64,000 nucleotides of DNA, taken from the NCBI RefSeq assembly GCF_054482525.1, contig NZ_CM137006.1. The stretch is one strand, 5' to 3'. Position numbers and translations under genes: made by a program. The stretch's first letter is position 1. The number at the start of each line of letters is the position of its first letter. Shown here one piece after another: positions 5,240 through 21,672 of this stretch. Under the pieces are notes generated by a model. The model saw only the letters and a list, made by a program, of their open reading frames with translations, was not told the origin of the DNA and did not search any database.

Positions 5240-5284
5240 TGATAACCTGTTCTGGATCAAAAGATGGACAGTCGGGTGGGCGGA

Positions 5285-5872
5285 TCAGTTAACTGAATCG
5301 ATCCATTGCACACTGTCGGCGGAGAGCGTAAAGGGGGTGGGAGTGCAGATCGCCAGGCTTAAATTATCAAGCTGGCAATGGCTGACCGACAGTGATGACT
5401 GATAGGTGCTGTCTACGCTGACGATTTGCCAGGCGCTGCCGCCACGTTGTTTAACGATGGCTTCTTTGCGTGTCCAGATGCGCCAGAACATTTCCAGTTG
5501 CTGATCAGGATGCACGGCGTCCATCTCAGCGTGTTCCCCGAGGCTGAACACCGCGTTCGCCAGCCAGCGCCAGTTGGCGCGCGGGCGAATCACTTCGATA
5601 TCGCAGCCGACTTCGCCTTCATCGCTCAACAGCAGGGCGATATCGTCACCGCTATGGCTTAAGTTGAACCATAGCGGCGTTTCCGGCGCGAATGCAGGTT
5701 TGCCTTGTTCGCCATAGATGATCTCCGGTAGCGGGGAAAGCGTGTGCGAAAGCAATGCACGCCCCGCCAGCCAGCGTTCGCGTCGTGGACCTTGCGGTGC
5801 TTGATCGCGTAAAGCCGGTGGCAGTGGAGCTGCGCTTAAGGTCGAAACTTTCCCCAGAACTATCCGATACAT
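5285..5872 (-). CDS. acpT: 4'-phosphopantetheinyl transferase AcpT (holo-ACP synthase family)
   Basis: ORF track gives 5285..5992; the likely true start is the internal ATG at 5872-5870 (MYRIVLGKVSTLSAAPLPP..., 195 aa). That start lies 1 nt after the stop of the upstream ketosynthase gene. Confidence 0.8.
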   Translation of the reverse strand: MYRIVLGKVSTLSAAPLPPALRDQAPQGPRRERWLAGRALLSHTLSPLPEIIYGEQGKPAFAPETPLWFNLSHSGDDIALLLSDEGEVGCDIEVIRPRANWRWLANAVFSLGEHAEMDAVHPDQQLEMFWRIWTRKEAIVKQRGGSAWQIVSVDSTYQSSLSVSHCQLDNLSLAICTPTPFTLSADSVQWIDSVN

Positions 5873-5873
5873 A

Positions 5874-7103
5874 TCAGGGCCAACGTTTAATGATGATGGA
5901 TGTATTAATGCCACCAAAGGCAAAGTTGTTACTCTGCAAAAACTCACAATCAACTTTGCGGGCTTCATGCATGATGTAATCCAGCGCGCCACAATTCGGG
6001 TCTGGTTTATTCAGGTTTAGCGTAGGCGCAAACCAACCTTCGCGCATCATTTGCAGACTCATCCAGGCTTCGAGCGCGCCACAGGCACCAAGCGTATGAC
6101 CAAAATAACTTTTCAGCGAGGAGAGCGGCACATTATCACCGTAAATGGTTGCTGTCGCCAGACTTTCTGCCATATCACCGCGATCGGTCGCCGTACCATG
6201 CGCTGAAATATAGCCGATATCTTGTGCGCTTAACCCGGCGATTTTCAGCGATTGCTCCATACAATACTGCATGGTTTCGCGCTGCGGCTGGGTAATATGT
6301 GCCGCGTCGCAGTTAGTCGCAAAGCCGACGATTTCACCGTAAATGGTCGCGCCGCGCGCTTTGGCGTGCTCCAGTTCTTCGAGAATGAGCGTACCTGCGC
6401 CTTCACCAATCACCAGCCCGTCGCGGTTTTCATCGAACGGTGAAGGTGTGGTTTTCGGCGCATCATTGTGCTGGCTGGTGGCGAAAAGCGTATCAAATAC
6501 CGCTGCTTCTGAAGGGCATAACTCTTCGGCACCACCAGCAACCATCACCGTTTGATAACCGTGGCGAATGGCTTCCCACGCATAACCGATTGCCTGGCTG
6601 CCGGAGGTACAGGCGCTGGAGGTTGGAATCACCCGCCCGCGCAGGCCGAAAAAGAGGCCAGTATTAACGGCGGTGGTGTGTGGCATCATCTGCACATAGG
6701 TGGTGCCAGTGATGTTGTTCGTGTGCTTTTCCGTCAGCATGGTGGCGAACTCGCTCACCGGGCCGGTACTGCCGGTCGATGAACCGTACGCAATGCCCGT
6801 TTCGCCGCTGGTTAATATCGGATCGCCAATCAACCCTGCCTGCTCTAATGCCAGCTCTGTCGCACGGGTCGACATTTGCGACACGCGGCCCATCGCACGG
6901 ATACGCTTGCGGGTGTAATGCTCCGGCAGCGTAAAATCATCAACAGGCGCGCCAAGCAGGGTGTGCAGACCATCGTAGACCTGCCACTCCGGCATTTTGC
7001 GCACTGCATTCTCATACGCCAGCAGACGCGCGGAAACGTCCTGCCAGTTTTCACCAAAGGCAGTCACGCCGCCCATTCCTGTAATCACTACGCGACGTGT
7101 CAT
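5874..7103 (-). CDS. Beta-ketoacyl-ACP synthase (KS) with Cys-His-His active site; by gene order apeR-like
   Basis: 409 aa ORF with active-site Cys in SSACTSG and His motifs SAHGTATDRGD and FGHTLGACG; FabB/FabF fold. Confidence 0.85.
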   Translation of the reverse strand: MTRRVVITGMGGVTAFGENWQDVSARLLAYENAVRKMPEWQVYDGLHTLLGAPVDDFTLPEHYTRKRIRAMGRVSQMSTRATELALEQAGLIGDPILTSGETGIAYGSSTGSTGPVSEFATMLTEKHTNNITGTTYVQMMPHTTAVNTGLFFGLRGRVIPTSSACTSGSQAIGYAWEAIRHGYQTVMVAGGAEELCPSEAAVFDTLFATSQHNDAPKTTPSPFDENRDGLVIGEGAGTLILEELEHAKARGATIYGEIVGFATNCDAAHITQPQRETMQYCMEQSLKIAGLSAQDIGYISAHGTATDRGDMAESLATATIYGDNVPLSSLKSYFGHTLGACGALEAWMSLQMMREGWFAPTLNLNKPDPNCGALDYIMHEARKVDCEFLQSNNFAFGGINTSIIIKRWP

Positions 7104-7831
7104 AACATCCCTCCGTTGATGGAAATAACCTGGCGGGTGACGTAACCCGCAATATCAGACATTAAATAGCTGGCAAGCCCGGCAACTTCTTCCGCCTGGC
7201 CCATGCGTTTCATGGGGATCATCGACATTGCCTCTTTCAGAGCGCTCTCTTCCATTTCGATCATCCCGGTATCAATAAGCCCCGGCGCGATGCAGTTGAC
7301 GGTGATTTTGCGCTTCGCGAGTTCGATAGCCAGTGCTTTTGTTGCGCCGATAATTCCGGCTTTGGCAGCGCTGTAGTTCACCTGTCCGCGATTGCCCATC
7401 ACGCCGGAAACCGAGGACAGCGTGATGATTCGTCCACCCTGGCGTGCGCCGATCATCGGCATAATGCACGGCTGAATGACGTTGTAGAAACTGTCGAGGT
7501 TGGTGTGGATCACCGCATCCCAGTCGTCATCGCTTAAAGCCGGAAAAGCGGCATCGCGGGCGATCCCGGCGTTACTAACCACGCCGTACCAGGCACCGTG
7601 TTGCGCGATCTCGTGCTCCAGCACTTCCCGACACTGTTCGCGGTTTGCGACGTCGAAACTGAGCAAACGCCCGTTACCACCGTTAGCGACAATGGCATTC
7701 AGCGTTTCCTGAGCGCCTGCGGCGTCACGGTGATAGTGAACGCCAATGTTAAAACCGTCTGCCGCCAATTGGCAGGCGATGGCGCGACCAATGCCTTTGC
7801 TGGCACCAGTAACCAGAACTGAACGACTCAT
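7100..7831 (-). CDS. 3-oxoacyl-ACP reductase, FabG-like SDR (KR); apeQ-like
   Basis: 243 aa ORF with N-terminal TGASKGIGRAIA Rossmann motif and SDR catalytic region (YSAAKAG). Confidence 0.85.
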   Translation of the reverse strand: MSRSVLVTGASKGIGRAIACQLAADGFNIGVHYHRDAAGAQETLNAIVANGGNGRLLSFDVANREQCREVLEHEIAQHGAWYGVVSNAGIARDAAFPALSDDDWDAVIHTNLDSFYNVIQPCIMPMIGARQGGRIITLSSVSGVMGNRGQVNYSAAKAGIIGATKALAIELAKRKITVNCIAPGLIDTGMIEMEESALKEAMSMIPMKRMGQAEEVAGLASYLMSDIAGYVTRQVISINGGML

Positions 7832-8295
7832 CAGGACGCTCCTTGTTGAAACAGGGTGGTAAGTTCTTCCGCGGTCGGCTGGAAGGTGTTAATGCGGCCC
7901 GTTGCTTCGCCGTCGTTGATACTGCACTCAAAACTGCCGAAGCGATCGTCTTGCATCAGGAGTTTGACGGTAATGGTCAGCGTCTGGCCTGCGGGCAGAA
8001 TGCCAGCGGCGCAAAGCAATTCACGTGCGCCCAGTACCATCCCTAACTCAATACTGTTTTTGCCCTGCTGGTGGCGATGCCAGCCAGACCAGACGCCGAC
8101 GGTTTGCGCCATCAATTCAAGGGCAAACCAGCCAGGGAGATTGCCGTCCGGGTCGAGAAACGGTGCCAGTACGCCACTGGGCGAAACCGTCACGCGGCAC
8201 ACCGCGCTGTCATCGCTGACGCTCACCACGTCTTCCAGCAGTAACATGGGCGCGTCGTGGGGCAGATAAGCGCCGGGGGATAAATAGTGGCTCAC
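7831..8295 (-). CDS. Hotdog-fold dehydratase (DH); apeP-like
   Basis: 154 aa ORF, tightly coupled between the KR and KS genes; size and position fit a FabA/FabZ-like hotdog dehydratase. Confidence 0.7.
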   Translation of the reverse strand: MSHYLSPGAYLPHDAPMLLLEDVVSVSDDSAVCRVTVSPSGVLAPFLDPDGNLPGWFALELMAQTVGVWSGWHRHQQGKNSIELGMVLGARELLCAAGILPAGQTLTITVKLLMQDDRFGSFECSINDGEATGRINTFQPTAEELTTLFQQGAS

Positions 8296-9470
8296 GAAAC
8301 CCTCCCGAGCAGAATGCTGGCGTTATTGCCGCCAAAGGCGAAGGAATTGGACAGGATCACCGGACGTGCCAGCGGCTGTGGTTGTTCGATAATGCCGCAC
8401 GGTGGCAGCGTGGGATCGCGCGGCGACAGGCTGAAGTCCTGAGCGAGCAGCGGTAAATCACGCTGTAAAATCAACATGCTGATTGCCGCCTCGGTAATGC
8501 CCGCCGCGCCCAGCGTGTGTCCGGTCAAATGTTTGGTGGAACTGCAAGGTACGCGTTCGCCAAACAGGGCGTTAACCACCATCGATTCAATCTGGTCGTT
8601 GAGTTGTGTGGCGGTACCGTGCAGGTTGATATAGCCGACGTCATCTGGCGTAAGCTGCGCATCGGTCAGCGCCTGGTTAATGGCGCGGATCGCCCCTTCG
8701 CCCTGCGGATGCGGGGCCGAAATATGGTAAGCGTCGCTCGATTCACCAACGCCCAGTAACGCGATGGGCTGCGGTTCACGGGTTAATAACATCAGTCCCG
8801 CCCCTTCGCCAATGGTGATACCTGCGCGGTCACGACCAAACGGCTGACATAAGGTGGGCGAGAGCGATTCGAGGCTGTGAAAACCGTTAATCGGCATCCG
8901 GCTCAGAGTATCTGCGCCACCCACAATGGCGGCATCGACCAGCCCCGCTTCGATAAGCCTGCGCCCGCTGATCATCGCTCTGGCGCTGGAAGAGCAAGCG
9001 GTTGAAAGGGTATAAGCCGGGCCATCGAGCGCCAGCCAGTGGCTGAGAAAGCGCGACGGATCGCCAAGTTCCTGTTGCGCGTAGTGCCATGTGGTGCTCG
9101 GCTGTCCGTTGGTGCGCAGGTTAACGTGCGTGTCGCCCTCATGCAGGCCGGAGGTGCTGGTGCCAAGTACAATCGCGATGCGCTCGTGACCATATTTCGC
9201 GATAGCGTCATCAACCTGCGGCTGGATCTGCGCCAGCGCCGCCAGCAGGATCTGATTGTTGCGCGAGCGGTGCGCAGCGAATTTTTCGGGGATAAGCGGA
9301 AGCTCGCCATCCACGCCAGCCAGGACCGCCTGCGGATGCCCCTGCAACCAGCCTGCGCGCGGACGCATGCCGGGAGCGACACCGCGAGTCAGGTTGGCTG
9401 CGATCTCATCAAGGTTATTTCCCAGGGCGTTGATCATGCCGACGGCGGAAATATAAATCATATCAGTCAC
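8292..9470 (-). CDS. Beta-ketoacyl-ACP synthase (KS); apeO-like
   Basis: 392 aa ORF with TACSSSARAM (active Cys), LHGTATQLND and TGHTLGAAG His motifs. Confidence 0.85.
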   Translation of the reverse strand: MTDMIYISAVGMINALGNNLDEIAANLTRGVAPGMRPRAGWLQGHPQAVLAGVDGELPLIPEKFAAHRSRNNQILLAALAQIQPQVDDAIAKYGHERIAIVLGTSTSGLHEGDTHVNLRTNGQPSTTWHYAQQELGDPSRFLSHWLALDGPAYTLSTACSSSARAMISGRRLIEAGLVDAAIVGGADTLSRMPINGFHSLESLSPTLCQPFGRDRAGITIGEGAGLMLLTREPQPIALLGVGESSDAYHISAPHPQGEGAIRAINQALTDAQLTPDDVGYINLHGTATQLNDQIESMVVNALFGERVPCSSTKHLTGHTLGAAGITEAAISMLILQRDLPLLAQDFSLSPRDPTLPPCGIIEQPQPLARPVILSNSFAFGGNNASILLGRVS

Positions 9471-10047
9471 CTAAGTATTGAATGGTGATGTGGTATTTAA
9501 AGACATGCTGCTCAATGCTGATTGGCACGCGTTTGCCCTTGCGATTCAAATAGGTGATTTCCGTGACCAGCTTGCCGCTGGCGTTACGCAGCTCGCGTTT
9601 GTCACCGTTGTCGCGAAGTGTCCAGCCAGTGGGAAGTTGCGGCTGCCAGGCGCTAATCGGCCAGTGGCTGAGCATCACGTCAGCCAGTACCTGACTTGCG
9701 GGCGGTAACTGTGGGACGACGATCGATTGCTCGGCGCGTAGCCCTTGCGCATCGTAGGTCACCAGAAACAGGCGAATGCCGACCGACGACAGTCCGGCAA
9801 GGGTGATTTTCTGGTCGTCGGCGTTAAGCATCACTAGCAGCGACTGGGTTTTGCCGTTGAAGCTGCCGGTCAACAGTTGCTGGGAATTGACGGCGGGTGA
9901 AATCCCCGGCGCAGGCAGCGTGATGCGCGTGCCAGGTTGCAGCCACGCTTGCGGGCGGCCTTCCTGTTCTGGTTGCGAGTGGCTACAGCCGGTGAGGATA
10001 AGCGTAGCGGTCAGGGCGAACGCTCGCCAGAATGTGGGTTTGATCAT
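9463..10047 (-). CDS. Lipoprotein of unknown function, DUF3261-like; apeN-like
   Basis: 194 aa ORF with signal peptide and lipobox LTGC; overlaps neighbouring genes at both ends. Confidence 0.7.
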   Translation of the reverse strand: MIKPTFWRAFALTATLILTGCSHSQPEQEGRPQAWLQPGTRITLPAPGISPAVNSQQLLTGSFNGKTQSLLVMLNADDQKITLAGLSSVGIRLFLVTYDAQGLRAEQSIVVPQLPPASQVLADVMLSHWPISAWQPQLPTGWTLRDNGDKRELRNASGKLVTEITYLNRKGKRVPISIEQHVFKYHITIQYLGD

Positions 10048-12362
10048 TTTTTTGTTCTCTTTTTATCGGGCATGGCCAGCGGCGAAAGCAGGAAGGCGGT
10101 GAAAATACCGCTCACCAGCACAATGCCAAAACTGCTGATGGCCTGGGTGGCGCTGAATACCAGCATTCCCAGCGTCAGCAAGGTGGTGAGCATTGCCAGC
10201 GTGATCGCCAGTAGCGAAGTTAATGGTGTGCCGCGCGGATTACTGAAAAACAGCGTGTAGTTGATGCCGATGCCAAGCACCAGTACCAGCGCCAGCAGCG
10301 AAAAGAGATTCACCGCCTGCCCGCTCATCGCCAGCACCGCCAGACCGCAGCCCAGTGAAAGCACCGAAGGCACCAGGCTGATAAACCCTTTGCGCCAGCC
10401 GAGGCGGGCCACTGCGCCGCAGGCAATTACTGCCAGCGCCACCAGCAACAAGCCGGTTAACACATAACGGTAAAGTGCGAACAATTCATCAAAGGTGTTT
10501 TTGCGATCAACCCAGGCAATGCCACAAGGGTAATAGCTGGAGATTTCCTGTAGCGCCGCGCTATTTTTAACCCCTTCAACCGGCACCAGCACGCCGCTTG
10601 CGCCATTTTCCAGCGTCAGCCACAGCAGACGCCAGCCTTCACTGGCGGGGCTTGCCAGCCATTCATCAACCTTCACTGGCATGGCGTTAAGATCCGGGTT
10701 CACCGCCGTCAGCCCGGCATTTTGCAGTGCTTTTGTTACCGTCGGGGCAGCCGTTTTCAGCAGGTCTAAATCTTCCTCCTGCCGCGCCAGGGAGTTCAGC
10801 GGAATGGTGCGGTAGTTGCTGATAAGGCCGTCTTTTTTCGCTTTCTCCAGCGAGGTGGTAAATGTCTCCAGCCGTCCCAAGGTTTGCTGTGACGAATCGC
10901 CGTAAACCACAAACCATTTTTGATCGACGCTTTGTCCGGTCAGGGCGGTGATGGCTTTCTCCTGCGCCAGAATATGCTGCGGTAGCGCCTGTAACTGCGA
11001 GATATCGTCATCGACGCACAGCATTGACATCCCCGCCAGCGAAAACAGCGCCAGCGCGACGGGCAGACCCCGCGACAGTTTTTTATTACGCCGCCACGCT
11101 GCCAGCCAGCGCAGCATCAGCGCCATCGCTGGAACCGGACGCACCGGCAGGCCACGGCACAGCCACGGATGCCAGAACAGGACGGTCAGACAGGAGGCGC
11201 TCAACCCGACGGCGGCAAAAATCGCCATCTGGCGAATGCCGGGGAAGGGGGCGAGCATCATAATCAGATACGCCGCCACGGTGGTGAGCAGCGCCAGCAG
11301 CAGGGCATTGCGCACTTTCGCCAGGCTTTGCCACGGCGAAACGTCATTGCCGTGCACCATCCGCTCGGTGAGGTAATAGAGCGTGTAGTCAGCGGAAATG
11401 CCGATAACGCTCATGCTCATCACCAGCGTCATCAGGTGTAATTCGCCGAAAATCAACAAGGTGGCGACCGTTCCCGCCAGCGCGCCGATGCCGATGGAAA
11501 TCACACACATCAGCAACGGGCGCAAAGAGCGGAACACCGCCACAATCAGCAATATCACCCCCAGCAGCGTTGCCACGCCCAGGGTGGAGATATCCTGCTT
11601 CGCCTGTTGGCTGGCGTAATCGCTGTAAAACACCGTGCCGCGTGAGAGCAACTGAGCCTGCGGGTAACGCGTTTTCAGATCCTTTTCCAGCGTATTCAGG
11701 GTCGTGATGAGCTGGTGGGTTTGCTGCATATCAAACGACGATCCCGCCAGTTCGCCGTGCAGCAGATACCAGTAGTTGCCCTGGGGATCCTGCGTCACCA
11801 GCCAGCCGTCCATCAGCCGCAAACGCTGGCCGTTTTTCGCCATCGCCAGCTGCGAGCCACGCATTAACATCAGCGGATCGTTTTGCAGCTCCTTACCGCT
11901 TACCCCGGAGAACGCAGAATAAAGCTGGGAGAGGATCCACTGCGCCTGCGCTTCGCCGCCGTTTTGCAGGCGCGCGCGGGTGTCGGGGTCAATCAGACCG
12001 TTGCGATGCTGCCAGAAAAACGCTCCCCACGCCTGCTGGCTGGCGGCATCCATTGGCCCTTTAACGTCGCCGAGCGCAGCGGATTTTTGCAGCAGCGTCA
12101 GCCACTCCTGAGCGACCCTGGGATTAGCCTCTTTACCGGGGCTGACCAGCCACACCAGTTGGCGGTCCAGACGCTGCATAAAGCCGTCATTCAGCGCTGG
12201 GGGAATATCGCCCATCGCCTGTTTGGGTAACATAGCCAGTACGCTACTGTTCAGTCGTGATTGCGGCAACAGGATCAGCAACGCCGCCGCCATGACCAGG
12301 CAGACGATCCCCCATAACAGCGCCGGGCGTTTACTGGGCGGCAAAACGTTGGCGTTCGTCAT
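10044..12362 (-). CDS. MMPL/RND-superfamily membrane exporter; apeM-like
   Basis: 772 aa ORF with two blocks of transmembrane helices separated by soluble domains, typical of MMPL lipid exporters. Confidence 0.8.
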   Translation of the reverse strand: MTNANVLPPSKRPALLWGIVCLVMAAALLILLPQSRLNSSVLAMLPKQAMGDIPPALNDGFMQRLDRQLVWLVSPGKEANPRVAQEWLTLLQKSAALGDVKGPMDAASQQAWGAFFWQHRNGLIDPDTRARLQNGGEAQAQWILSQLYSAFSGVSGKELQNDPLMLMRGSQLAMAKNGQRLRLMDGWLVTQDPQGNYWYLLHGELAGSSFDMQQTHQLITTLNTLEKDLKTRYPQAQLLSRGTVFYSDYASQQAKQDISTLGVATLLGVILLIVAVFRSLRPLLMCVISIGIGALAGTVATLLIFGELHLMTLVMSMSVIGISADYTLYYLTERMVHGNDVSPWQSLAKVRNALLLALLTTVAAYLIMMLAPFPGIRQMAIFAAVGLSASCLTVLFWHPWLCRGLPVRPVPAMALMLRWLAAWRRNKKLSRGLPVALALFSLAGMSMLCVDDDISQLQALPQHILAQEKAITALTGQSVDQKWFVVYGDSSQQTLGRLETFTTSLEKAKKDGLISNYRTIPLNSLARQEEDLDLLKTAAPTVTKALQNAGLTAVNPDLNAMPVKVDEWLASPASEGWRLLWLTLENGASGVLVPVEGVKNSAALQEISSYYPCGIAWVDRKNTFDELFALYRYVLTGLLLVALAVIACGAVARLGWRKGFISLVPSVLSLGCGLAVLAMSGQAVNLFSLLALVLVLGIGINYTLFFSNPRGTPLTSLLAITLAMLTTLLTLGMLVFSATQAISSFGIVLVSGIFTAFLLSPLAMPDKKRTKK

Positions 12363-12936
12363 CGGTCAGTTGCGCTGGCGTCAGTTGATGTTGGGTAAGA
12401 GCGATATCGGTGCGATCGCCCTGTTTATCATTAAGCTGAATGCTCTCCAGATAGGTTTGCCCGGCGAGATCGATGGTGTTGAAAATTTTATCCAGCGGCG
12501 TGGTGGTCGGCGTCAGGCGCAGTGTCCAGCGGCCTTCGCCTTTGTCAGCAAATTCGACGCGGAAGTTTTGTTCCAGCACTTTGCGATCGGCCTGGAACAG
12601 CGCGCGCAGCAGGTGGTTAAACTGGAACATCTGCGGGTTATTTTCTGCCGTGATAATTTGCGGCGGCTGACCGTTGATCACCTGCACCATGCGTTTATCG
12701 TCCAGCAATAGTTGCATGGGGAACGGTGAGGTTTGATCCCACAACAGCCCCTGGTCGCGGGCGATCAACATCTGGCCCTGAGATCGTAGCGGCTGCGGCA
12801 GATCTTTAATCGTCCGGGTTTGATCGAAATGGGCGCGGATCACTGGCTGTTCGGTAAAGCGTTGCTGAAGATCGTCCAGGTTCAGGGCGCTCACAAACGG
12901 GCTAATCAGCAGCGCCAGCAGCGGTAAAAATTTCAT
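12331..12936 (-). CDS. LolA-like outer-membrane lipoprotein carrier protein; apeL-like
   Basis: 201 aa ORF with signal peptide (MKFLPLLALLISPFVSA); size and composition fit the LolA/LolB fold. Confidence 0.7.
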   Translation of the reverse strand: MKFLPLLALLISPFVSALNLDDLQQRFTEQPVIRAHFDQTRTIKDLPQPLRSQGQMLIARDQGLLWDQTSPFPMQLLLDDKRMVQVINGQPPQIITAENNPQMFQFNHLLRALFQADRKVLEQNFRVEFADKGEGRWTLRLTPTTTPLDKIFNTIDLAGQTYLESIQLNDKQGDRTDIALTQHQLTPAQLTDDERQRFAAQ

Positions 12937-13355
12937 GGTTTGACTCCCATGCGTTCAAACAGAATATCGGGGCTGACAAAGCACAGTTCGCGGCTTTGCT
13001 CGTCGACCGCGACCTGAATGGTGTATCCGGTGGTGGCGCGTTTTCCCGTTTCGGCATCGAAAATCTGATAGCCAATCCGCAGACGGTTTTCGAACTCTTC
13101 GATATGCGCACGCACGCGGATGCGTTGCTCAAAGGTGAGGGCGTGGCGATATTTCACCCTCGCATCGACCACTGGCCACAAATAACCGGACTCTTTCATC
13201 TGCCGATAGCCGTAATTGAACTGGTTGAGCAGCGCCTCGCGGGCCACTTCAAAGTAGCGAAAATAGTTACCGTGCCAGGCCACGCCCATCATATCGACGT
13301 CGTGAAAGGGAATGGTCAGCTCGACTTCAGCGGTAAATCGGGGATCGTTAAGCAC
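12933..13355 (-). CDS. Acyl-CoA/acyl-ACP thioesterase, 4HBT/YbgC hotdog family; apeK-like
   Basis: 140 aa ORF with the N-terminal ...ELTIPFHDVDMMGVAWHGNYFRYFE... motif typical of 4HBT-type thioesterases. Confidence 0.75.
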   Translation of the reverse strand: MLNDPRFTAEVELTIPFHDVDMMGVAWHGNYFRYFEVAREALLNQFNYGYRQMKESGYLWPVVDARVKYRHALTFEQRIRVRAHIEEFENRLRIGYQIFDAETGKRATTGYTIQVAVDEQSRELCFVSPDILFERMGVKP

Positions 13356-13358
13356 CCT

Positions 13359-15035
13359 TTACTCCTTGTCCTGGACTTCCGGCAGTTGCCAGAAATCGAA
13401 AAAATTAAACCAGTCGAGGGGGGACTGGAGCGCGTAATATTCCAGACGCGCGGCGTAATGATCGATAGCGTTTTGCAGCGCCTGCTGGCGTTCGCCACGC
13501 GGCAACAGCAGCGGGTCGGCAAAGGTTTCGCAGTGAATATGCAGCTTGCCGTGCTGGCGCAGCGCGAAAATCAGATTCACCGGGCAGCGCAAAATAGACG
13601 CAAGAATAAACGGCCCCTGCGGGAAGGGCGCAGGCTGGCCCATAAACGGACTCCAGCAGACTCGCCAGTCGCCGCCGCGTTGCGGGTTGACGGCGATGCG
13701 GTCACCGACAATCGCCACCCATTCGCCGTTATCCAGCTTCTCTTTGAGCAGGATGGCGGTTTCTGGGCCGATATCCGTCACCGGGAGCAGGTTGATGCCT
13801 GCCTGCGGGGCCATCTCCTGCATTATCTGTTTAAAGCGTTGGGCGTTTTCGCTAAACACCAGCGCGTTAATGGTTTTGTAGCCCTGAATTTTTGCCAGCG
13901 CCCGGCACACTTCCACATCGCCAAGATGCGAGGCCAGCAGCAATTTGCCGCGCGGATCGCTGACGTTAAGTGCCGCTTCTGCGCCTGGTGCAAACAGCAC
14001 ATCACGCCCGAGTTGCAGCTCGCCGCGCCAGCTGGCGATTTTGTCGAGCATGGCGTTGCCGAAACGTAGAAAGTGCTGATAGCTGTTGATTTTTGCTGCC
14101 AGTGGTTGTTGTTGGCGCACACGGGCGAGCCAGGCTTGCGACGCTTTACGCGCACGAGCAGCGGTGAGCCAGTAGACGCCCACCACCGGGTAAAGCAGCG
14201 CGGTAAACGCAGTTCTTCCCAGCAGACGCCAGACCAGCAGCATCAGGCGCATTCCCCATAATCCTTTCACTTCGCTCTGCCGCGCCCAGTGGCTGGAAGA
14301 GCTGCGCATCAGCAGTGAAGGAATACGCGGCAACATGCCGAAAAACAGACGTGTGTGCATGAGCGAGATGCGGACGTTATCTTTCAGGGCATCAAAATGC
14401 GAAAGCCCGTCCAGTGGATAGGTGACGCGGGTCGGCACGAAATAGCTGGTGTTTCCCTGCCAGTAGAGGCGCACCATCACTTCAGTGTCGAAATCCATCC
14501 GCTTGCCGATGGTGGCGTATTTTGCCAGTTGCAGCGTTGGCGCAACCGGATAAACGCGAAAGCCGCACATGCTGTCTTTCAGTTGCAGGGAGAGCGTTTC
14601 GATCCATACCCAGACGTGGGTGACCCAGCGCCCGTACAGCCGTGAGCGGGGGATGGAGTCATCGTAAATCGGCTGGCCGGAGATCAGCGCCGCAGGCTGC
14701 TGTTCAGCGAGTGCCAGCAGTTTAGGGATGTCTTCAATCGCGTGCTGACCGTCAGCATCCACCTGTACCGCATGGCTGAAGCCCGCGTCTGCCGCCGCCT
14801 GTAAGCCGCGCATTACCGCCGCGCCTTTGCCTGCGTTTTCTGCCAGGCGAATTAAGGTCACGCCAGGCTGTTCGGCAACCAGATTATCCAGTTGCTGTTG
14901 CGTGGCGGCATCGCTGCCGTCATCCACCACAATACAGGGCAGATTAAATGGCTTAAGACGCGCCAGCACGCCCGGCATCATCGCACCGTGGTTGTAGCAG
15001 GGGATCAACACACAGGGAGAAAAGTTTACCGACAT
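13359..15035 (-). CDS. Two-domain protein: family 2 glycosyltransferase (N-terminal) fused to a lipid-A-type acyltransferase domain (C-terminal); apeJ-like
   Basis: 558 aa ORF; N-terminus CVLIPCYNHG...VVDDGSDA...VDADGQH is the GT2 signature (DxD-type); C-terminal half resembles LpxL/HtrB-like acyltransferases. Confidence 0.7.
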   Translation of the reverse strand: MSVNFSPCVLIPCYNHGAMMPGVLARLKPFNLPCIVVDDGSDAATQQQLDNLVAEQPGVTLIRLAENAGKGAAVMRGLQAAADAGFSHAVQVDADGQHAIEDIPKLLALAEQQPAALISGQPIYDDSIPRSRLYGRWVTHVWVWIETLSLQLKDSMCGFRVYPVAPTLQLAKYATIGKRMDFDTEVMVRLYWQGNTSYFVPTRVTYPLDGLSHFDALKDNVRISLMHTRLFFGMLPRIPSLLMRSSSSHWARQSEVKGLWGMRLMLLVWRLLGRTAFTALLYPVVGVYWLTAARARKASQAWLARVRQQQPLAAKINSYQHFLRFGNAMLDKIASWRGELQLGRDVLFAPGAEAALNVSDPRGKLLLASHLGDVEVCRALAKIQGYKTINALVFSENAQRFKQIMQEMAPQAGINLLPVTDIGPETAILLKEKLDNGEWVAIVGDRIAVNPQRGGDWRVCWSPFMGQPAPFPQGPFILASILRCPVNLIFALRQHGKLHIHCETFADPLLLPRGERQQALQNAIDHYAARLEYYALQSPLDWFNFFDFWQLPEVQDKE

Positions 15036-15409
15036 AGGCGGATCTTCCCGCTACTGGCGGTGTGGCGGGCGTCACCGTCGTGACGCTGATAGCTAAAGCT
15101 CAGAATCTGGCGTTCTTCCTGCCAGTTAAGCGTGAGCGTGACGCGGTTTTCCGGCAGCAACGGGGACTGGAATTTGATGTTCTGAATAGAGTGAAAACGC
15201 CAGCCAGGCGCGAGCAGGGCAAGCGCGTAGCTCATCGCCCAGTCGATTTGTGCAACTCCTGGAAGTAACGGCTGCACGGCAAAATGACCGCGAAACCAGA
15301 ACAGATCCGCCCTGAGATGCAGAACAATTTCAAGGTGATTCGCTTGTGCCTGATGGCGCTCGATTTCATGGGGCTTCATGAAATAACTCCTGTAATTGCG
15401 CATAGACAC
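15026..15409 (-). CDS. Hotdog-fold dehydratase, FabA/FabZ-like (DH); apeI-like
   Basis: 127 aa ORF (true start possibly the internal Met at about 15379); small hotdog protein overlapping both neighbours. Confidence 0.6.
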   Translation of the reverse strand: MSMRNYRSYFMKPHEIERHQAQANHLEIVLHLRADLFWFRGHFAVQPLLPGVAQIDWAMSYALALLAPGWRFHSIQNIKFQSPLLPENRVTLTLNWQEERQILSFSYQRHDGDARHTASSGKIRLCR

Positions 15410-16766
15410 GCTTGTTCATACTGTTTACTGGCATTTCATCAATAACGCGCCAGTAACGCGGAATAGCAACTGGCTCCAGGGTCGGGCGCAGTAATCGCCG
15501 CCAGGTCATTTCCTGGCTATGCCCGCCGCCGTTCTGCCATTGCAGATGAGCTTCGTCATCCAGCACCAGCAAAACGCCGATGCTCTGACGCCCGCCGCGC
15601 GTAACGGGAACTGCCGCCGCCTCGCGAATGCCGTCCAGCGCCAGCAGACGTTGTTCTACTTCCTGGAGTGAAATACGTTTTTCTTCAATCTTAACGATGC
15701 GCCCACGACGCCCCATCAGATGGAACTGACCGTCCTGGCTAAACTGCAAGAGATCGTCGAGCAACAGGCCGTTATCTTCCGCTATCAGCGGTGAAAAGAG
15801 GCGAAATGCTTCACCTTCGACCTGGAAGTGCATACCTGGAAAGGGCCGCCAGCGGCGTTGCTCTTGTTCGCGGTAACGCCAGGCAATGACGCCGGTTTCC
15901 GTGCTGCCGAAGATTTCATCAGGCCAGACGCGCAGCCAGCTCTCGGTATATTGTACGTCCTGCCACGGCAGCTCACCGCCAGCAGAGAGAAGCACCTGAA
16001 CAGGCGGCGGGGATAGCTGAGCATCCAGACGCTTCAAAAATGCCGGGCTGCTGATGAAGATATAGCGATGCTGGTGACTCAATGCGGCAAACTGTTCGAC
16101 ATACCAGAGCATGGCGGCGTGCAGCGGTAATCCCAGCGCCATTGGCAGGAAAACGCGAAAAGTCAGGCCGTACAAATGCTGCGGCAAAACGGAACCGACG
16201 ACACGACATCCGGCAAGACGTGCGCCTAATCGTTCAGCCAGCAGTTCTGCTTCACGGTCCAGCAAATGAACAGGCTTAATTACCCGCTTTGGCTGCCCCG
16301 TAGAACCGGAGGTAAACAGCTCGATATAAGCGTCTGGCGCTATAGCGGCAAAGGTGAATGATTGTGTCGCGACTTGTGGGGAACTTGCTACCAACAGCAA
16401 TGAACCTTGCCAGTTAAGTTCGCTGTCGCTAAGTACACCATCGAACAGTTCACGTTGCTCATTAAGCTGGATGACACGGTTATGCCCCGGAAGCACCGGC
16501 GTTTTTCCGGCGTGTAGCGTGGCGAGCAGGGCAACGATAAATAGATAGCTGTTCTCAAAGCACAGCGCCCAGCGTTCACCCGGCTGTTGCTGCAAGCGGC
16601 AGATAAGTTGCGCGACATCGTGACGCAAATCGCCCAGTGTCCACGAGCTTTCGTCCAGCCACGCAATGGGCGTGTCATCAGGGCGTGGCGCAGTCAGCCA
16701 GCGTGCAAGCGGTAAGGTCTGCTTCATGAGCGATCTCTTTTTATCACCTGACGGCGCACCAGCCAT
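15366..16766 (-). CDS. AMP-dependent ligase (acyl-ACP/CoA synthetase-like adenylating enzyme); apeH-like
   Basis: 466 aa ORF with AMP-binding core motif TSGSTGQPKRV; the start may be the internal Met (MKQTLPL...) at about 16727. Confidence 0.8.
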   Translation of the reverse strand: MAGAPSGDKKRSLMKQTLPLARWLTAPRPDDTPIAWLDESSWTLGDLRHDVAQLICRLQQQPGERWALCFENSYLFIVALLATLHAGKTPVLPGHNRVIQLNEQRELFDGVLSDSELNWQGSLLLVASSPQVATQSFTFAAIAPDAYIELFTSGSTGQPKRVIKPVHLLDREAELLAERLGARLAGCRVVGSVLPQHLYGLTFRVFLPMALGLPLHAAMLWYVEQFAALSHQHRYIFISSPAFLKRLDAQLSPPPVQVLLSAGGELPWQDVQYTESWLRVWPDEIFGSTETGVIAWRYREQEQRRWRPFPGMHFQVEGEAFRLFSPLIAEDNGLLLDDLLQFSQDGQFHLMGRRGRIVKIEEKRISLQEVEQRLLALDGIREAAAVPVTRGGRQSIGVLLVLDDEAHLQWQNGGGHSQEMTWRRLLRPTLEPVAIPRYWRVIDEMPVNSMNKRVYAQLQELFHEAP

Positions 16767-17305
16767 TCACCTGCCATTAACGTTCCCATCAACAAATAAG
16801 CAATCATGCCGTTCCAGGCGGTCCATAACGACATATCGCCATAAAGCGCGGTAAAGAGGGCAATTCCGCCGTTAATGATGAAAAAGCCGCACCAGATTTG
16901 CGTGACACGGCGGGTATAGCGCACGCCCTTTTCCGGGAGGTCTGGCTCCTGCAAACGTGCCAGCCGCTCAACTATCGGCATTGTCGACCACAGCGAACCG
17001 CCAAAAACCGCCAGCATGATCGCGTTAACCACTACCGGGTAAAACAGCAGTAGCTGGTGCGTTTTCAACAGAAAGCTGGCGACACACAATGCGATGCCCA
17101 CGACAGCGACGATTTGTGTGACGGCTTGTAGCGGCCCCGCCCGGCGACGGGTCTGGCGCAGGCGCAACAAAAGCAGCAACGCTATTAGCGGCAACAACCA
17201 GTGCAGGCCGTTATGCGCCAGGCCAAACCAAATCACAAACGGCCAGGCGAGCAGCAATAATCCAGTCAGCAGCTTAATCATCGGTAGCGAGCGAATGCCC
17301 GACAT
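16724..17305 (-). CDS. Small integral membrane protein of unknown function; apeG-like
   Basis: 193 aa ORF with several hydrophobic helices; coding-dense position inside the cluster. Confidence 0.6.
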   Translation of the reverse strand: MSGIRSLPMIKLLTGLLLLAWPFVIWFGLAHNGLHWLLPLIALLLLLRLRQTRRRAGPLQAVTQIVAVVGIALCVASFLLKTHQLLLFYPVVVNAIMLAVFGGSLWSTMPIVERLARLQEPDLPEKGVRYTRRVTQIWCGFFIINGGIALFTALYGDMSLWTAWNGMIAYLLMGTLMAGEWLVRRQVIKRDRS

Positions 17306-17309
17306 CAGA

Positions 17310-17561
17310 TCAGGCTTCTTGTAGCAGGCGTTCTACAGCCTCTACGACATCCTGAACTGTGCGCACTGCTTTAAACTCTTCCGGCTTGATTTTCTTACCG
17401 GTTTTCTTTTGCAGGTGCACAATCATGTCAACGGCGTCGATGCTGTCCAGTTCCAGATCTTCGTACAGGCGCGCTTCAGGTTTGATGTCCTGCGGATCGA
17501 TTTCAAACAGCTTAACCAGCAGGGCTGAGACTTCCTGATAGACGGTTTGTTGTTCTGTCAT
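17310..17561 (-). CDS. Acyl carrier protein; apeF-like
   Basis: 83 aa acidic ORF with the phosphopantetheine attachment motif LELDSIDAVDMI. Confidence 0.85.
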   Translation of the reverse strand: MTEQQTVYQEVSALLVKLFEIDPQDIKPEARLYEDLELDSIDAVDMIVHLQKKTGKKIKPEEFKAVRTVQDVVEAVERLLQEA

Positions 17562-17572
17562 GATGGCTTTCC

Positions 17573-17830
17573 TCAGGCACGTTGCGCAGCAATGAAAGAG
17601 GCCAGAGTGGCGACGGAGAAAAAGTGCTGACGCATCTCTTCACTTTCCGCAGAAAGTACAACGCCATATTGATTTTTCACTGCCAGCCCCAGTTCCAGGG
17701 CATCGATGGAATCCAGTCCTAAACCGTCGCCGAACAGCGGCGCATCGGTCTCGATATCATCAGGAGTCAACTCGTCCAGATTGAGGGTACTGATGATGAG
17801 GTTTTTAATTTCCAGATAAAGCGCTTGCAT
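17573..17830 (-). CDS. Acyl carrier protein; apeE-like
   Basis: 85 aa ORF with LGLDSIDALELG attachment motif; tandem with the second ACP gene. Confidence 0.85.
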   Translation of the reverse strand: MQALYLEIKNLIISTLNLDELTPDDIETDAPLFGDGLGLDSIDALELGLAVKNQYGVVLSAESEEMRQHFFSVATLASFIAAQRA

Positions 17831-18644
17831 TATTTATTCCTGAGAGAGGTAAACAACCTTGTTGTAATTGAAGCAAAAGATGCCGGTTTAACTGCCTTGC
17901 TGCCAGCGCCGGTTCTTGTGAAGTTGCATCGTAAAATTTATTGATTTCAACCCGACCATGGACTTCAACCGTAAAAAACGGCCGGTCAGGTGGAACGTCA
18001 TACCATTTACTTTGTTTATCCAGCAGATGCTCGCTACAGCCGATCGTCACGATGCGTAAATCGCTGGCACAGCGCACGGCAATATTCGCCGCCCCGCGCT
18101 GCAGCGTCATTTTTTCACCGGGCTTCGTTCGCGTGCCTTCGGGGAAAATCAGGATAGTGTCACCCTGTGCCAGTCGCTGTTGGCAGCGGGGTAACAGGGT
18201 TTCAGCTTCGCTGTTGATTAAATAATCTGCCGCCCGCACGACGCCGCCAAGAAAAGGATTTTTTAACAGCGCGCTTTTCACCAGGCAGTCAGTTTCTGGC
18301 ATGACTGACGCCAGCAGCACGTAATCGATCAGCGTGGGATGATTGGCTACGACGAGGCAACCGCGTTCCTGACGTAAAATTTCAGCGCCATCAATACGAT
18401 AATCCAGCACGCCAAGCCCTTTCGCGACAGTTAAAAACAGGCGAAAACTGGCGGCAATGCTGCGACGCGCCAAACGACGGCGGCGGGAAGTATCCCACAC
18501 CAAAACTAACAATATGTTAAACCACACGACAGAAAGCAGCAGGCCGCCGAGACCAAACAGGGCAAAACATAACCCGGTCATGACCAGTCGCCAGGTCCAC
18601 TCCAGACGTGACATCAGCTTACTCATCTGCGGCTCCAGCGCCAT
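17805..18644 (-). CDS. Lysophospholipid (PlsC-type) acyltransferase; apeD-like
   Basis: 279 aa ORF with N-terminal transmembrane segment and H(X)4D-type motif NHPTLID; likely start at the Met giving an ATGA overlap with the upstream stop near 18626. Confidence 0.75.
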   Translation of the reverse strand: MALEPQMSKLMSRLEWTWRLVMTGLCFALFGLGGLLLSVVWFNILLVLVWDTSRRRRLARRSIAASFRLFLTVAKGLGVLDYRIDGAEILRQERGCLVVANHPTLIDYVLLASVMPETDCLVKSALLKNPFLGGVVRAADYLINSEAETLLPRCQQRLAQGDTILIFPEGTRTKPGEKMTLQRGAANIAVRCASDLRIVTIGCSEHLLDKQSKWYDVPPDRPFFTVEVHGRVEINKFYDATSQEPALAARQLNRHLLLQLQQGCLPLSGINNASALSGN

Positions 18645-19345
18645 TGCACGCGCTCGCCAGGCAGTGAAAATGCGTCTGCATTTTGTAAATAGTGCTGTAA
18701 AAACAACATGCTTTGCGGCAGTGATGTTTCATTGCCCGCAATGGCTGACTGCGTTTCACATTGCCAGTCATCGCCAGCTTCAATCACCAGCGCGACGGCG
18801 TACGGCCAGGTCGGCATTTCTGATGGCAGTTGTGGGTGATAAAACTCAGGCAGAAAGCCATCAAAATCGACCATCAGCACGCGCTGGTATCCCGCTTGTA
18901 ACAGGCTAAGCACTTCACACAAACCTTGCTGGAAAGTGTCGCGACCAGCAGAAAGCGATGACGAAACGATCGGCTGTTTGGCCGCAATGGTCAGGTTACC
19001 CACGGAAGAGTTGTGTACGGAGAGCGCGAAGTCGGTCGGAGAAAGCGCCTGTTCAGTTGCCAGTGCATGAACAATGCGGTAATTGCGCTCCAGTTCGCCA
19101 TGACGACTGGTATACAAAACGGCGTCTGGCTGATGGCGGCGTAGCATTGCCAGACCGCATTCAACAGCCAGTTTGCTGCCTGAACTAAGGCGGCGGGCGG
19201 TCATCATTGGCAGTTCACTTAATTTTGCCAACGGCGCGGCAGGGTCAATCGCCCACGGCTGGCGCGACCATGCTTGCCATTGCTGCGCTTCGCTAAGTCC
19301 AGGCGCCAGTGCCTGCCAGTCGGTAATATTTAATGTAAATTTCAT
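18623..19345 (-). CDS. Beta-ketoacyl synthase N-terminal-domain protein lacking the catalytic Cys (chain-length-factor-like); apeC-like
   Basis: ORF track gives 18623..19369 (248 aa); probable start MKFTLNITDW at about 19345. About half the size of a full KS with no active-site Cys motif recognisable. Confidence 0.6.
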   Translation of the reverse strand: MKFTLNITDWQALAPGLSEAQQWQAWSRQPWAIDPAAPLAKLSELPMMTARRLSSGSKLAVECGLAMLRRHQPDAVLYTSRHGELERNYRIVHALATEQALSPTDFALSVHNSSVGNLTIAAKQPIVSSSLSAGRDTFQQGLCEVLSLLQAGYQRVLMVDFDGFLPEFYHPQLPSEMPTWPYAVALVIEAGDDWQCETQSAIAGNETSLPQSMLFLQHYLQNADAFSLPGERVQWRWSRR

Positions 19346-19385
19346 CAACGCGCGCCCGCGGTAAACCAAAATTATTAAGTGACGA

Positions 19386-20453
19386 TTATTTCTTTTGGCA
19401 TATCAAAAGTGTATGCCCAACGCCTAAATTATCGTGGCGCTCTGCTACCTGGAATCCTGCTTTATTCAGATAGTCGTAAAATTTCTCTGCACTATAGAAA
19501 CGGCTGTTACCGTTTGCCATGCAGGTAAAATAAAGTGAGGACGCGTTCAGGCTAAATGATGCTGCTTCAAACCGCTGCGCATCCCAGAACAACTCCATGA
19601 TGCAAACTTTTGCGCCAGGCTTCATTACGCTGGCGATTTTGCTGAGTATGCTAATTATTTGTTCGGGTGAAAAACAGTCTAAAAATTGGCTCATCCACCA
19701 GATATCAGCCTCGCCCGGTAATGGGGCATCGCTTAGCATATCCACCGCATGGAAATCTATGCGATCAGAAAAACCTGCATTCGCGATATTTTCTTTCGCT
19801 AGTACGATTTGTTGTGGCAGATCTAATAACGTCACGGCGATGTTTTCATTGTATTTGCAGCAACGCAAAGCCCACTTACCCGTATTGCCGCCTACATCGT
19901 ACAATGTTGTGGGGTTGTTGGCGAATACATAAGGCAGTGCGGCGTTAAATGCGCCATCTGAATAGTAATGATCAAACGCAAACCAGCTTTCACGAGCGGC
20001 GTCTGGTAATTGTGAAAGTGCCGGATATATCGTCGGCCAGTCGCCAAATACTTTTAACCCGGACGGTTTTCCTTCATTGAGTGAATCGGCGAGGAAGAAG
20101 AGCCCCTGGTAACAGACATCCTGGGTGAAATCCATATTCACGCGAGTCATAGTGTCATGCAGGAGGTAATGACCGATTTTCGCCAGGTAATACATTCCCT
20201 CTTTACAGGTAATAATTCGCCCGCTTAAGCCCATATCTAACAGAACGCTGGCCGCATATTCGTTGATATGGCTATGTTCGGTGATATCAGCCAGCGTTGC
20301 GCCATGTTTGCCTTGCCGATCCAGATATGAAAGTACACCCGCATTACGTAGGCAGAGTGCTGTTTGAAAAAGCATAGGGGCAAAGGCAATGCGTTGAGCT
20401 TCGGTAATCGCATCCAGTGCGCTAAGAGAATCCTGTTCGTACATGTTGGGCAC
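19386..20453 (-). CDS. SAM-dependent methyltransferase (O-methyltransferase family); apeB-like
   Basis: 355 aa ORF with glycine-rich SAM-binding motif LYDVGGNTGKWAL and C-terminal catalytic region. Confidence 0.8.
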   Translation of the reverse strand: MPNMYEQDSLSALDAITEAQRIAFAPMLFQTALCLRNAGVLSYLDRQGKHGATLADITEHSHINEYAASVLLDMGLSGRIITCKEGMYYLAKIGHYLLHDTMTRVNMDFTQDVCYQGLFFLADSLNEGKPSGLKVFGDWPTIYPALSQLPDAARESWFAFDHYYSDGAFNAALPYVFANNPTTLYDVGGNTGKWALRCCKYNENIAVTLLDLPQQIVLAKENIANAGFSDRIDFHAVDMLSDAPLPGEADIWWMSQFLDCFSPEQIISILSKIASVMKPGAKVCIMELFWDAQRFEAASFSLNASSLYFTCMANGNSRFYSAEKFYDYLNKAGFQVAERHDNLGVGHTLLICQKK

Positions 20454-20512
20454 AACCTGTTAAGAGGGAATTAAATTATTATCGGACCGCAGCGGCCCGA
20501 CTTTAGGAAGAA

Positions 20513-20902
20513 TTATAAATCTGCGCCCGCTGACAAATTCAGTTGAATATCTTTGTCGAGATTGCGGACCCAGCGATTGTAGTTTTTATGAATTTGTCCG
20601 CCTGACGCTTGTAGGTTCTGGCTATTTTCATAATTGATATCGTAGCTGGATGCCGTGTAGTTAATGCGAATTTCGGCTGAATGATCGCGTGACTGTTGAC
20701 GTGCTTTAATTACGCCTTGTCCGGCTTCGGACATAATCCATTTGCGTTCAACGCCAGCTTTCAGAATCGCTTTTTTCACTTGTTCCTGGGTATGACCAGC
20801 GCTGACGGTTGAGTGAACCTGATCAATTGGCGCAGTACGCGCGCAACCCGCTAAAGCACCCACAACAGCAATAGCCGCAAACCATTTCATGTAATGTCTC
20901 AT
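20513..20902 (-). CDS. Small lipoprotein of unknown function; first gene of the cluster
   Basis: 129 aa ORF with signal peptide and lipobox LAGC; its start codon lies inside the IS1 target duplication. True start may be the second Met (MKWFAA...). Confidence 0.6.
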   Translation of the reverse strand: MRHYMKWFAAIAVVGALAGCARTAPIDQVHSTVSAGHTQEQVKKAILKAGVERKWIMSEAGQGVIKARQQSRDHSAEIRINYTASSYDINYENSQNLQASGGQIHKNYNRWVRNLDKDIQLNLSAGADL

Positions 20903-20904: not shown

Positions 20905-20919
20905 GGTAATGACTCCAAC

Positions 20920-21423
20920 TTATTGATAGTGTTTTATGTTCAGATAATGCCCGATGACTTTGTCATGCAGCTCCACCGATTTTGAAAACGACAGCGACTT
21001 CCGTCCCAGCCGTGCCAGGTGCTGCCTCAGATTCAGGTTATGCCGCTCAATTCGCTGCGTATATCGCTTGCTGATTACGTGCAGCTTTCCCTTCAGGCGG
21101 GATTCATACAGCGGCCAGCCATCCGTCATCCATATCACCACGTCAAAGGGTGACAGCAGGCTCATAAGACGCCCCAGCGTCGCCATAGTGCGTTCACCGA
21201 ATACGTGCGCAACAACCGTCTTCCGGAGCCTGTCATACGCGTAAAACAGCCAGCGCTGGCGCGATTTAGCCCCGACGTATCCCCACTGTTCGTCCATTTC
21301 CGCGCAGACGATGACGTCACTGCCCGGCTGTATGCGCGAGGTTACCGACTGCGGCCTGAGTTTTTTAAGTGACGTAAAATCGTGTTGAGGCCAACGCCCA
21401 TAATGCGGGCGGTTGCCCGGCAT
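20920..21423 (-). CDS. insB: IS1 transposase InsB
   Basis: 167 aa ORF matching IS1 InsB (…[54 protein letters not shown]…). Confidence 0.9.
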
Positions 21424-21617
21424 CCAACGCCATTCATGGCCATATCAATGATTTTCTGGTGCGTACCGGGTTGAGAAGCGGTGTAAGTGAACTGCAGTTG
21501 CCATGTTTTACGGCAGTGAGAGCAGAGATAGCGCTGATGTCCGGCGGTGCTTTTGCCGTTACGCACCACTCCGTCAGTAGCTGAACAGGAGGGACAGCTG
21601 ATAGAAACAGAAGCCAC
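21342..21617 (-). CDS. insA: IS1 protein InsA
   Basis: 91 aa [46 protein letters not shown]... matching IS1 InsA. Confidence 0.9.
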
Positions 21618-21672
21618 TGGAGCACCTCAAAAACACCATCATACACTAAATCAGTAAGTTGGCAGCATCACC

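Follow-up and report, generated by a model that had tools for sequence, protein, structure and literature searches.

Aryl-polyene clusters described so far and the locus beside acpT

A cell-bound yellow aryl-polyene (APE) pigment has been demonstrated for Xenorhabdus and for the gene cluster of Escherichia coli CFT073. A 4-hydroxy-3-methylphenyl hexaene chromophore is common to both, and the full structure of the APE lipid was solved for Xenorhabdus (bioRxiv 10.1101/2020.12.19.423268). The pathway of Xenorhabdus doucetiae was reconstituted in vitro by Grammbitter et al. 2019, as credited in PMC8253772 and PMC12624758. The genetics of the CFT073 cluster, designated APE_Ec, was reported by Johnston et al. 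2021 (PMC8253772), while identification of its product is credited in the cited papers to an earlier study (PMC8253772). Genetic work has also addressed the function of APE in relation to reactive oxygen species and biofilm (PMC8253772, PMC12871727). In E. coli O157:H7, an island adjacent to acpT is called OI-138 in the literature, and the phosphopantetheinyl transferase AcpT was reported to activate its homologues of the carrier proteins ApeE and ApeF (De Lay & Cronan 2006, as cited in PMC8253772). Here we analyzed 64,000 nucleotides of contig NZ_CM137006.1 (assembly GCF_054482525.1), a stretch referred to below as the window, of which the minus strand carries eighteen genes, apeA to apeR, beside acpT at positions 5874-20902. 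This block is an intact, already described E. coli APE cluster, as located beside acpT in O157:H7. By analogy with the characterized clusters, its genes very probably encode a type II polyketide synthase/fatty-acid synthase-like pathway, in which a pigmented polyene acid would be made, built into a membrane lipid and exported to the outer membrane as a yellow antioxidant. The cluster is ordinary except for a strain-specific insertion sequence, IS1, just upstream of apeA and for its mosaic divergence from the CFT073 model cluster.

The closest relatives are other copies at the same site. All 18 Ape proteins and AcpT of E. coli SCU-102 are 100% identical to those of the window, as is the cluster DNA of PCN033 (6000-20800, 14.8 kb), so that the system is already known and its sequence is public in other genomes. 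The O157:H7 strain TR01 carries the same 18 genes in the same order at the same site (nikA-acpT / ape / yhhT-yhhS), with Ape proteins that are 96-100% identical (99% for ApeA) and with the same allele type of ApeH, ApeI, ApeG and ApeA; the comparison with this island that the preliminary description of the window had proposed thus gave the same cluster. These acpT-locus copies (O157:H7, PCN033 and SCU-102) differ from the window only by the IS1 between apeA and the upstream region. The position between acpT and yhhT and the absence from K-12 are shared with OI-138, and modification of the carrier proteins by AcpT would be expected by analogy.

The CFT073 cluster (c1204-c1186) is collinear with the window gene for gene from apeA to apeR, as judged by tblastn and by Table 1 of PMC8253772, and has the same predicted functions. 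At the protein level, 14 of the 18 reach 93-100% identity, and the DNA shares ~96-97% over most of its length. For instance, ApeB (c1203) shares 94% and ApeM 98%, while ApeK is 100% identical to both the CFT073 and O157 proteins. The CFT073 copy however sits elsewhere, in an integrase- and IS-flanked island adjoining pga/dgcT, without acpT beside it. The cluster of X. doucetiae (apeB to apeR) has the same gene set, and its solved complexes 6qsp and 6qsr are strongly matched by ApeO, ApeC, ApeP and ApeI of the window, at clearly incomplete identity. Flexirubin and xanthomonadin clusters share the enzyme logic, and flexirubin models match ApeQ (FlxB), ApeB (FlxJ family) and ApeL (LolA2_flexi). 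These matches are all below the equivalog cut-offs, and the gene order and partner genes of the window are of the enterobacterial ape type. The ketosynthases ApeO and ApeR belong to the core-gene definition of APE clusters (bioRxiv 10.1101/2020.12.19.423268, Fig. 1 legend). The window contains this ketosynthase pair together with the chain-length factor, two acyl carrier proteins, ApeI/ApeP, ApeQ and ApeM, in the published order. Both the assignment to the APE family on content and order and the remark that nothing novel could be claimed, as made in the preliminary description, thus agree with the published clusters, and the analysis leaves the understanding of the APE system unchanged. Reports credit APE lipids with protecting Gram-negative pathogens against oxidative stress and with promoting biofilm, and recognition of an intact cluster is useful for strain annotation.

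Gene organization and family assignments

The list of open reading frames and retranslation gave 18 uninterrupted frames with zero internal stops. By the RefSeq starts of the identical SCU-102 genes, neighboring ape genes either overlap, by 1-32 nt, or leave gaps of 1-68 nt between them, and the start of acpT lies 1 nt past the apeR stop. Judged from this layout, apeA-apeR and acpT are arranged as one long predicted operon, with acpT as the 19th gene of the unit. Protein families were assigned with the curated NCBIfam/TIGRFAM models at their cut-offs and with Pfam, and structural matches were taken from the PDB (Table 1). NCBIfam holds no model for ApeC or ApeN and gave weak matches only for ApeA, ApeG, ApeI and ApeP; Pfam covers four of these six. 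A scan of 4000-24000 at the Rfam gathering thresholds found no family.

Table 1. Positions, strand and assignment of the ape genes, acpT and the elements upstream of apeA in the window.
Feature	Position	Strand	Assignment	Evidence
acpT	5285..5872	-	4'-phosphopantetheinyl transferase	NF007676, 395 bits (cut-off 174)
apeR	5874..7103	-	second ketosynthase, homodimeric type	NF006587, 778 bits (cut-off 470)
apeQ	7100..7831	-	FabG2 3-ketoacyl-ACP reductase	TIGR01831, 476 bits (cut-off 339)
apeP	7831..8295	-	hotdog dehydratase subunit, partner of ApeI	PF22817 ApeP-like, 1.1e-40
apeO	8292..9461	-	elongating ketosynthase, partner of ApeC	NF006618, 558 bits (cut-off 407)
apeN	9463..10047	-	DUF3261 (LolB-like) lipoprotein	PF11659, 3.5e-39; lipobox LTGC
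apeM	10044..12362	-	MMPL/RND-superfamily exporter	HAE3, HpnN and MMPL matches; RefSeq 'MMPL family transporter'
apeL	12331..12936	-	LolA-like periplasmic carrier	TIGR00547 lolA, 1.5e-16; LolA2_flexi, 6.5e-15
apeK	12933..13355	-	4HBT/YbgC-type thioesterase	TIGR00051, 1.3e-16
apeJ	13359..15035	-	GT2 glycosyltransferase fused to LpxM/PatA-like acyltransferase (moderate confidence)	
apeI	15026..15379	-	hotdog dehydratase subunit	PF22818 ApeI-like, 5.7e-40; FabZ-like GHFxxxPxxPG motif
apeH	15366..16727	-	putative adenylate-forming aryl-ACP synthetase (4-hydroxybenzoate to ApeE, by analogy)	AMP-binding family matches
apeG	16724..17305	-	integral membrane protein	RefSeq 'COG4648 family protein'
apeF	17310..17561	-	second acyl carrier protein	NF003757, 146 bits (cut-off 65)
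apeE	17573..17830	-	starter acyl carrier protein	NF006617, 91 bits (cut-off 70); Gly-rich GDGLGLDS motif
apeD	17805..18626	-	PlsC/LPLAT-type lysophospholipid acyltransferase	TIGR00530 domain, 3.6e-15
apeC	18623..19345	-	ketosynthase-like chain-length factor, 240 aa	PF13723, 3.4e-67
apeB	19386..20444	-	S-adenosylmethionine-dependent methyltransferase, putatively of the aryl head group (by analogy)	NF053543 FlxJ-family methyltransferase, 475 bits, E 9.8e-143
apeA	20513..20902	-	first gene, small lipoprotein	signal peptide and lipobox (…VGALAGC)
IS1 target duplication	20896-20904 and 21673-21681		9 bp, TAATGAGAC	
IS1	20905..21672	-	768 bp; insA/insB co-oriented with the ape genes	breakpoints against IS1-free SCU-102
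native apeA-yhhT intergenic region	21682..22058	-	377 bp, AT-rich	100% SCU-102, 96% O157

Each functional class that the preliminary description had read from the letters alone was recovered. The eighteen packed or overlapping minus-strand genes are all intact, and the AMP-dependent ligase, 4HBT thioesterase, methyltransferase and PlsC-type acyltransferase have matching families. The FabG-like reductase, two hotdog dehydratases and two acyl carrier proteins (ACPs) were likewise found again (TIGR01831; PF22817 and PF22818; NF006617 and NF003757), as was the export set of MMPL, LolA-like and lipoprotein genes, for which ApeM, ApeL, ApeN (DUF3261) and ApeA provide family and lipobox evidence. The proposed glycosyltransferase/acyltransferase fusion corresponds to ApeJ, for which the support is at the level of the predicted fold and of moderate confidence.

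Polyene-assembly enzymes

Two Cys-His-His ketosynthases and a Cys-less ketosynthase-like protein had been described, and alignment bore this out: ApeO and ApeR carry Cys, His and His aligned with C164/H304/H341 of K-12 FabF, and the active-site Cys motif is missing from ApeC. ApeO matches 6qsp_A with an E-value of 1.5e-172 and ApeC matches 6qsp_B, the ApeC of X. doucetiae, with 7.8e-93, and formation of an ApeO:ApeC complex is predicted from these similarities. The dehydratase subunits ApeP and ApeI match 6qsr_B (2.7e-47) and 6qsr_A (6.6e-39), respectively. At residue 50 the ApeI of the window has Ser, where His is present in at least 95% of 41 orthologs (H50S); this position is not the FabZ-type catalytic His, which is located in the GHF motif at about residue 31. 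A DSI motif containing the Ser for phosphopantetheine attachment is readable in the translations of both ApeE and ApeF, which are 96.5% and 100% identical to their O157 counterparts. ApeH has zero solved homologues at E <= 1e-10, and its core motifs TSGSTGQPK, GSTETG and GRRGR-VKIEEKRISL are kept. ApeH was reported to load 4-hydroxybenzoate preferentially on ApeE (PMC12624758).

The same enzymes have been read differently in the older 'FAS-like' annotation of O-island 138, that is, as a secondary fatty-acid synthase (FAS) for a non-aryl, non-pigmented fatty acid or for a modification of lipid A. Most of the enzymes indeed score as FabF, FabG or FabZ relatives, LpxM-like and PlsC-like acyltransferases are present in the cluster, and the Xenorhabdus lipid contains a conjugated C26:5 acyl chain, which the same enzymes are presumed to build on ApeF (bioRxiv 10.1101/2020.12.19.423268). 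Nevertheless, an enoyl reductase is absent from the cluster, which instead includes an adenylating enzyme of the aryl-acid type, a pair of ketosynthase and chain-length factor, and the Pfam families specific for ApeI and ApeP. Moreover, expression of a near-identical cluster in E. coli Top10 yields a yellow aryl polyene. We regard a secondary fatty-acid synthase as extremely improbable.

Lipid-assembly and export proteins

The HX4D motif (NHPTLID) and the FPEGTR motif are readable in the translation of ApeD. For ApeJ, the top curated family match of the GT2 domain is polyprenyl-phospho-N-acetylgalactosamine (GalNAc) synthase, which agrees with the GalNAc-1-phosphate-glycerol linkage and the role of ApeJ proposed for the Xenorhabdus APE lipid (bioRxiv 10.1101/2020.12.19.423268). 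Besides this domain, Pfam shows nothing in ApeJ, and a phmmer search of residues 245-558 against the PDB returned spurious matches to designed ankyrin repeat proteins (DARPins) only. An H370-x4-E375 motif is invariant across the family, and the predicted fold is consistent, at moderate confidence, with a GT2/acyltransferase fusion. No significant match was obtained for ApeG in Pfam or NCBIfam, and none to a curated family for ApeA. Translation of apeA can start at the ATG annotated by RefSeq at 20890 (125 aa) or at an alternative ATG at 20902 (129 aa).

Proposed pathway and its weight

A pathway can be proposed in which the enzyme identities are taken from the window sequence and the chemistry is transferred from the work on Xenorhabdus, Acinetobacter and CFT073. 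AcpT would convert ApeE and ApeF into their holo forms, and ApeH would adenylate 4-hydroxybenzoate supplied by UbiC and load it directly onto ApeE. The starter would be extended with malonyl units by ApeR and the ApeO:ApeC pair, each round being followed by reduction with ApeQ and dehydration with ApeI:ApeP, without enoyl reduction, which would leave an aryl-hexaene chain. The ring would be methylated by ApeB, and ApeK would act as a thioesterase. On the lipid side, ApeD would acylate a lysophospholipid, the GT2 domain of ApeJ would transfer an N-acetylhexosamine to the lipid phosphate, and its LpxM/PatA-like domain would esterify the polyene acid to the sugar. The RND/MMPL protein ApeM, together with ApeG, ApeL, ApeN and ApeA, would then carry the lipid to the outer membrane, for a possible role in quenching reactive oxygen species and promoting biofilm. 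The preliminary description had left the exact product and lipid anchor open; this is no longer fully so, as the lipid of the Xenorhabdus homologue has been solved (bioRxiv 10.1101/2020.12.19.423268). The GalNAc-phosphate-glycerol anchor with its C26:5 acyl chain is known from Xenorhabdus only, and for E. coli it would be an extrapolation.

Several points weigh against transferring this pathway to the window as a whole. The E. coli cluster dissected experimentally is the CFT073 island copy, of which ApeH, ApeI, ApeG and ApeA are divergent, and the literature searched shows no chemistry or expression experiment on any acpT-locus (OI-138-type) copy. For ApeA, ApeG, ApeL and ApeN the literature offers proposed roles, and the confidence of the ApeJ model is only moderate, with a mean predicted local distance difference test score (pLDDT) of 68.5. 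A further point is that the IS1 may shut the operon down or alter its control in this strain.

Mosaic divergence from the CFT073 alleles

Between the window and CFT073, the nucleotide identity falls sharply from ~96-97% to 60-75% in two segments, at ~14900-17250 and ~20150-20900, of which the counterparts are located at 37880-40156 and 43100-43749 in the CFT073 locus (L003). The amino acid identity is correspondingly 66% for ApeH (c1197), 72% for ApeI, 83% for ApeG and 66% for ApeA (c1204), and nothing in the CFT073 locus matches the region upstream of apeA. Alleles of the CFT073 type, on a comparable IS-rich island, are also found in O103:H2. Compared with the CFT073-type alleles, ApeH, ApeG and ApeA of the window type stand slightly nearer to their Citrobacter orthologs, and it is therefore the CFT073 island copy that looks mosaic. 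For the CFT073-type apeH/I/G/A cassette, no donor closer than ~73-76% was found among 43 loci of GTDB species representatives. Two types of cluster can be distinguished in E. coli, one most likely ancestral at acpT and one that looks mosaic on a mobile island; the experiments were made on the island type, while O157:H7 and the window carry the other.

Given this divergence, the acpT-locus product might have another starter unit, chain length or anchor than the CFT073 APE. The four divergent proteins stand apart from the remaining 14, and the starter unit is chosen by ApeH. The two ApeH alleles however have identical adenylation core motifs, and the post-A4 segment PQHLYGLTFR-FLPMALGLPLHAAMLWY is essentially identical between them. 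Both allele sets also keep nearly all of the columns conserved in at least 95% of ~40 orthologs (41 from other genera): window ApeH deviates in 7 of 193 such columns, six of these changes being conservative and the seventh being L87Q. Because the conserved columns and core motifs are retained, we think that both sets are functional, as predicted from sequence, and that a differing product is unlikely. Similarly, ApeC, ApeO, ApeB and ApeJ/ApeD are 94-98% identical to the CFT073 proteins, and the distant Xenorhabdus orthologs yield the same 4-hydroxy-3-methylphenyl hexaene as CFT073 (bioRxiv 10.1101/2020.12.19.423268). A different product of the acpT-locus cluster is accordingly given little probability.

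A broader proposal would be that the acpT-linked form was inherited vertically and that the CFT073 copy acquired apeI-apeH-apeG, apeA and the promoter region from an unsampled donor, with possible differences in starter loading, in export or anchoring and in regulation. Taken as a whole we consider this doubtful. If it were true, the product and control of the cluster form in O157:H7 and the window would never actually have been measured, and the IS1 may also rewire the operon here. For the window, synthesis of the same aryl polyene as in CFT073 is preferred.

IS1 upstream of apeA

The preliminary description had placed the cluster between acpT and yhhT. This holds on the acpT side; on the yhhT side, in the only point that needed correcting, an IS1 (20905-21672) intervenes, flanked by its target duplication (Table 1). 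The element precedes the annotated apeA ATG (20890) by 14 nt and the alternative ATG (20902) by 2 nt, so that the operon is cut from its native upstream region, in which the promoter presumably resides. The same junction is absent from all 5426 complete E. coli genomes in the collection.

The cluster may therefore be genuine and yet transcriptionally silent or deregulated in this strain. The insertion displaces the native 377-bp upstream region by 777 bp and parts the 18 ape genes and acpT from the presumed promoter, and IS1 insertions are usually polar. Between the packed or overlapping genes no intergenic region stands out, the widest gap being 68 nt, and an independent IS1 at the same 5' boundary occurs in Eco_23-3511 and JX21CE8. 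On the other hand, all 19 reading frames are uninterrupted and match IS1-free relatives exactly, and there is therefore no decay. The IS1 is co-oriented with the operon, and read-through or a hybrid promoter is possible; promoters created by IS1 are known. Native APE clusters have also been reported to be poorly expressed or silent in the laboratory (bioRxiv 10.1101/2020.12.19.423268), and the baseline would thus be low anyway. In a consensus scan of 20400-22200, 3 promoter-like sites were counted, compared with 3.0 expected in shuffled sequences, and the single sigma-70-like minus-strand site in the native upstream region is likewise no more than chance; no promoter is hence claimed. Terminator-like sites numbered 4 in the same scan against 1.7 (standard deviation 1.4) in shuffles. 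Weighing these, we hold silencing or deregulation by IS1 to be a tangible possibility, though not the probable one, and retain the reading of an intact APE cluster.

The independent insertion of Eco_23-3511 lies inside apeA (17224-17995 of locus L002) and that of JX21CE8 beside the yhhT stop (~1951-2720 of locus L052). Such recurrence at the 5' edge of the ape genes may reflect an AT-rich target or selection on expression, and repeated IS1 at this edge of the acpT-locus copy could matter for pigment production by a strain.

Distribution and ancestry

By megablast, the cluster was found in 825 of 5426 complete E. coli genomes (~15%). It has the nikA-acpT / yhhT-yhhS context in 566 genomes (~10%), and the CFT073-type island copy accounts for ~5%. 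In K-12 MG1655, yhhT (b3474) and acpT (b3475) are separated by 54 bp, adjacent as the preliminary description had stated, and the alignment to K-12 that had been proposed for fixing the island boundaries shows that the block is missing: homology ends at window position 5892 and restarts at 22063. Directly before acpT, K-12 retains the final 19-20 nt of apeR, consisting of the last codons and stop CATTAAACGTTGGCCCTGA (…ATTAAACGTTGGCCCTGA), which corresponds to window 5873-5892 and to 6950-6969 of the K-12 locus (L004). This remnant indicates that K-12 carries a deletion scar. The 38-bp K-12-specific sequence at the junction is matched nowhere in the window.

The 43 loci came from scanning GTDB species representatives with an ApeH alignment. 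Among these, the same gene order, yhhS-yhhT-apeA…apeR-acpT, is seen again in several species of Citrobacter as well as in Superficieibacter, Lelliottia, Kosakonia, Huaxiibacter, Klebsiella michiganensis, Pluralibacter and a cryptic Escherichia clade. Since this synteny is conserved across genera of Enterobacteriaceae and K-12 retains the apeR remnant, the acpT-linked ape locus is most likely ancestral and lost in most E. coli lineages, the K-12 state being a deletion. Given the cross-genus synteny, ancestral presence followed by loss was favored over horizontal acquisition of the block as an island. The term accessory used in the preliminary description is thus apt with respect to the limited occurrence of the cluster, and it is to be refined as most likely ancestral and lost rather than acquired.

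The search located 835 cluster places in 826 records, and ~10 E. coli genomes have two places, including strain 33F4 (NZ_CM147849.1), which carries an acpT-locus copy. In Superficieibacter sp. 1612_C1, codon 465 of the apeJ ortholog (11681-13369 of locus L013) reads as a stop in the frame defined by tblastn, which may point to a pseudogene or to a sequencing error.

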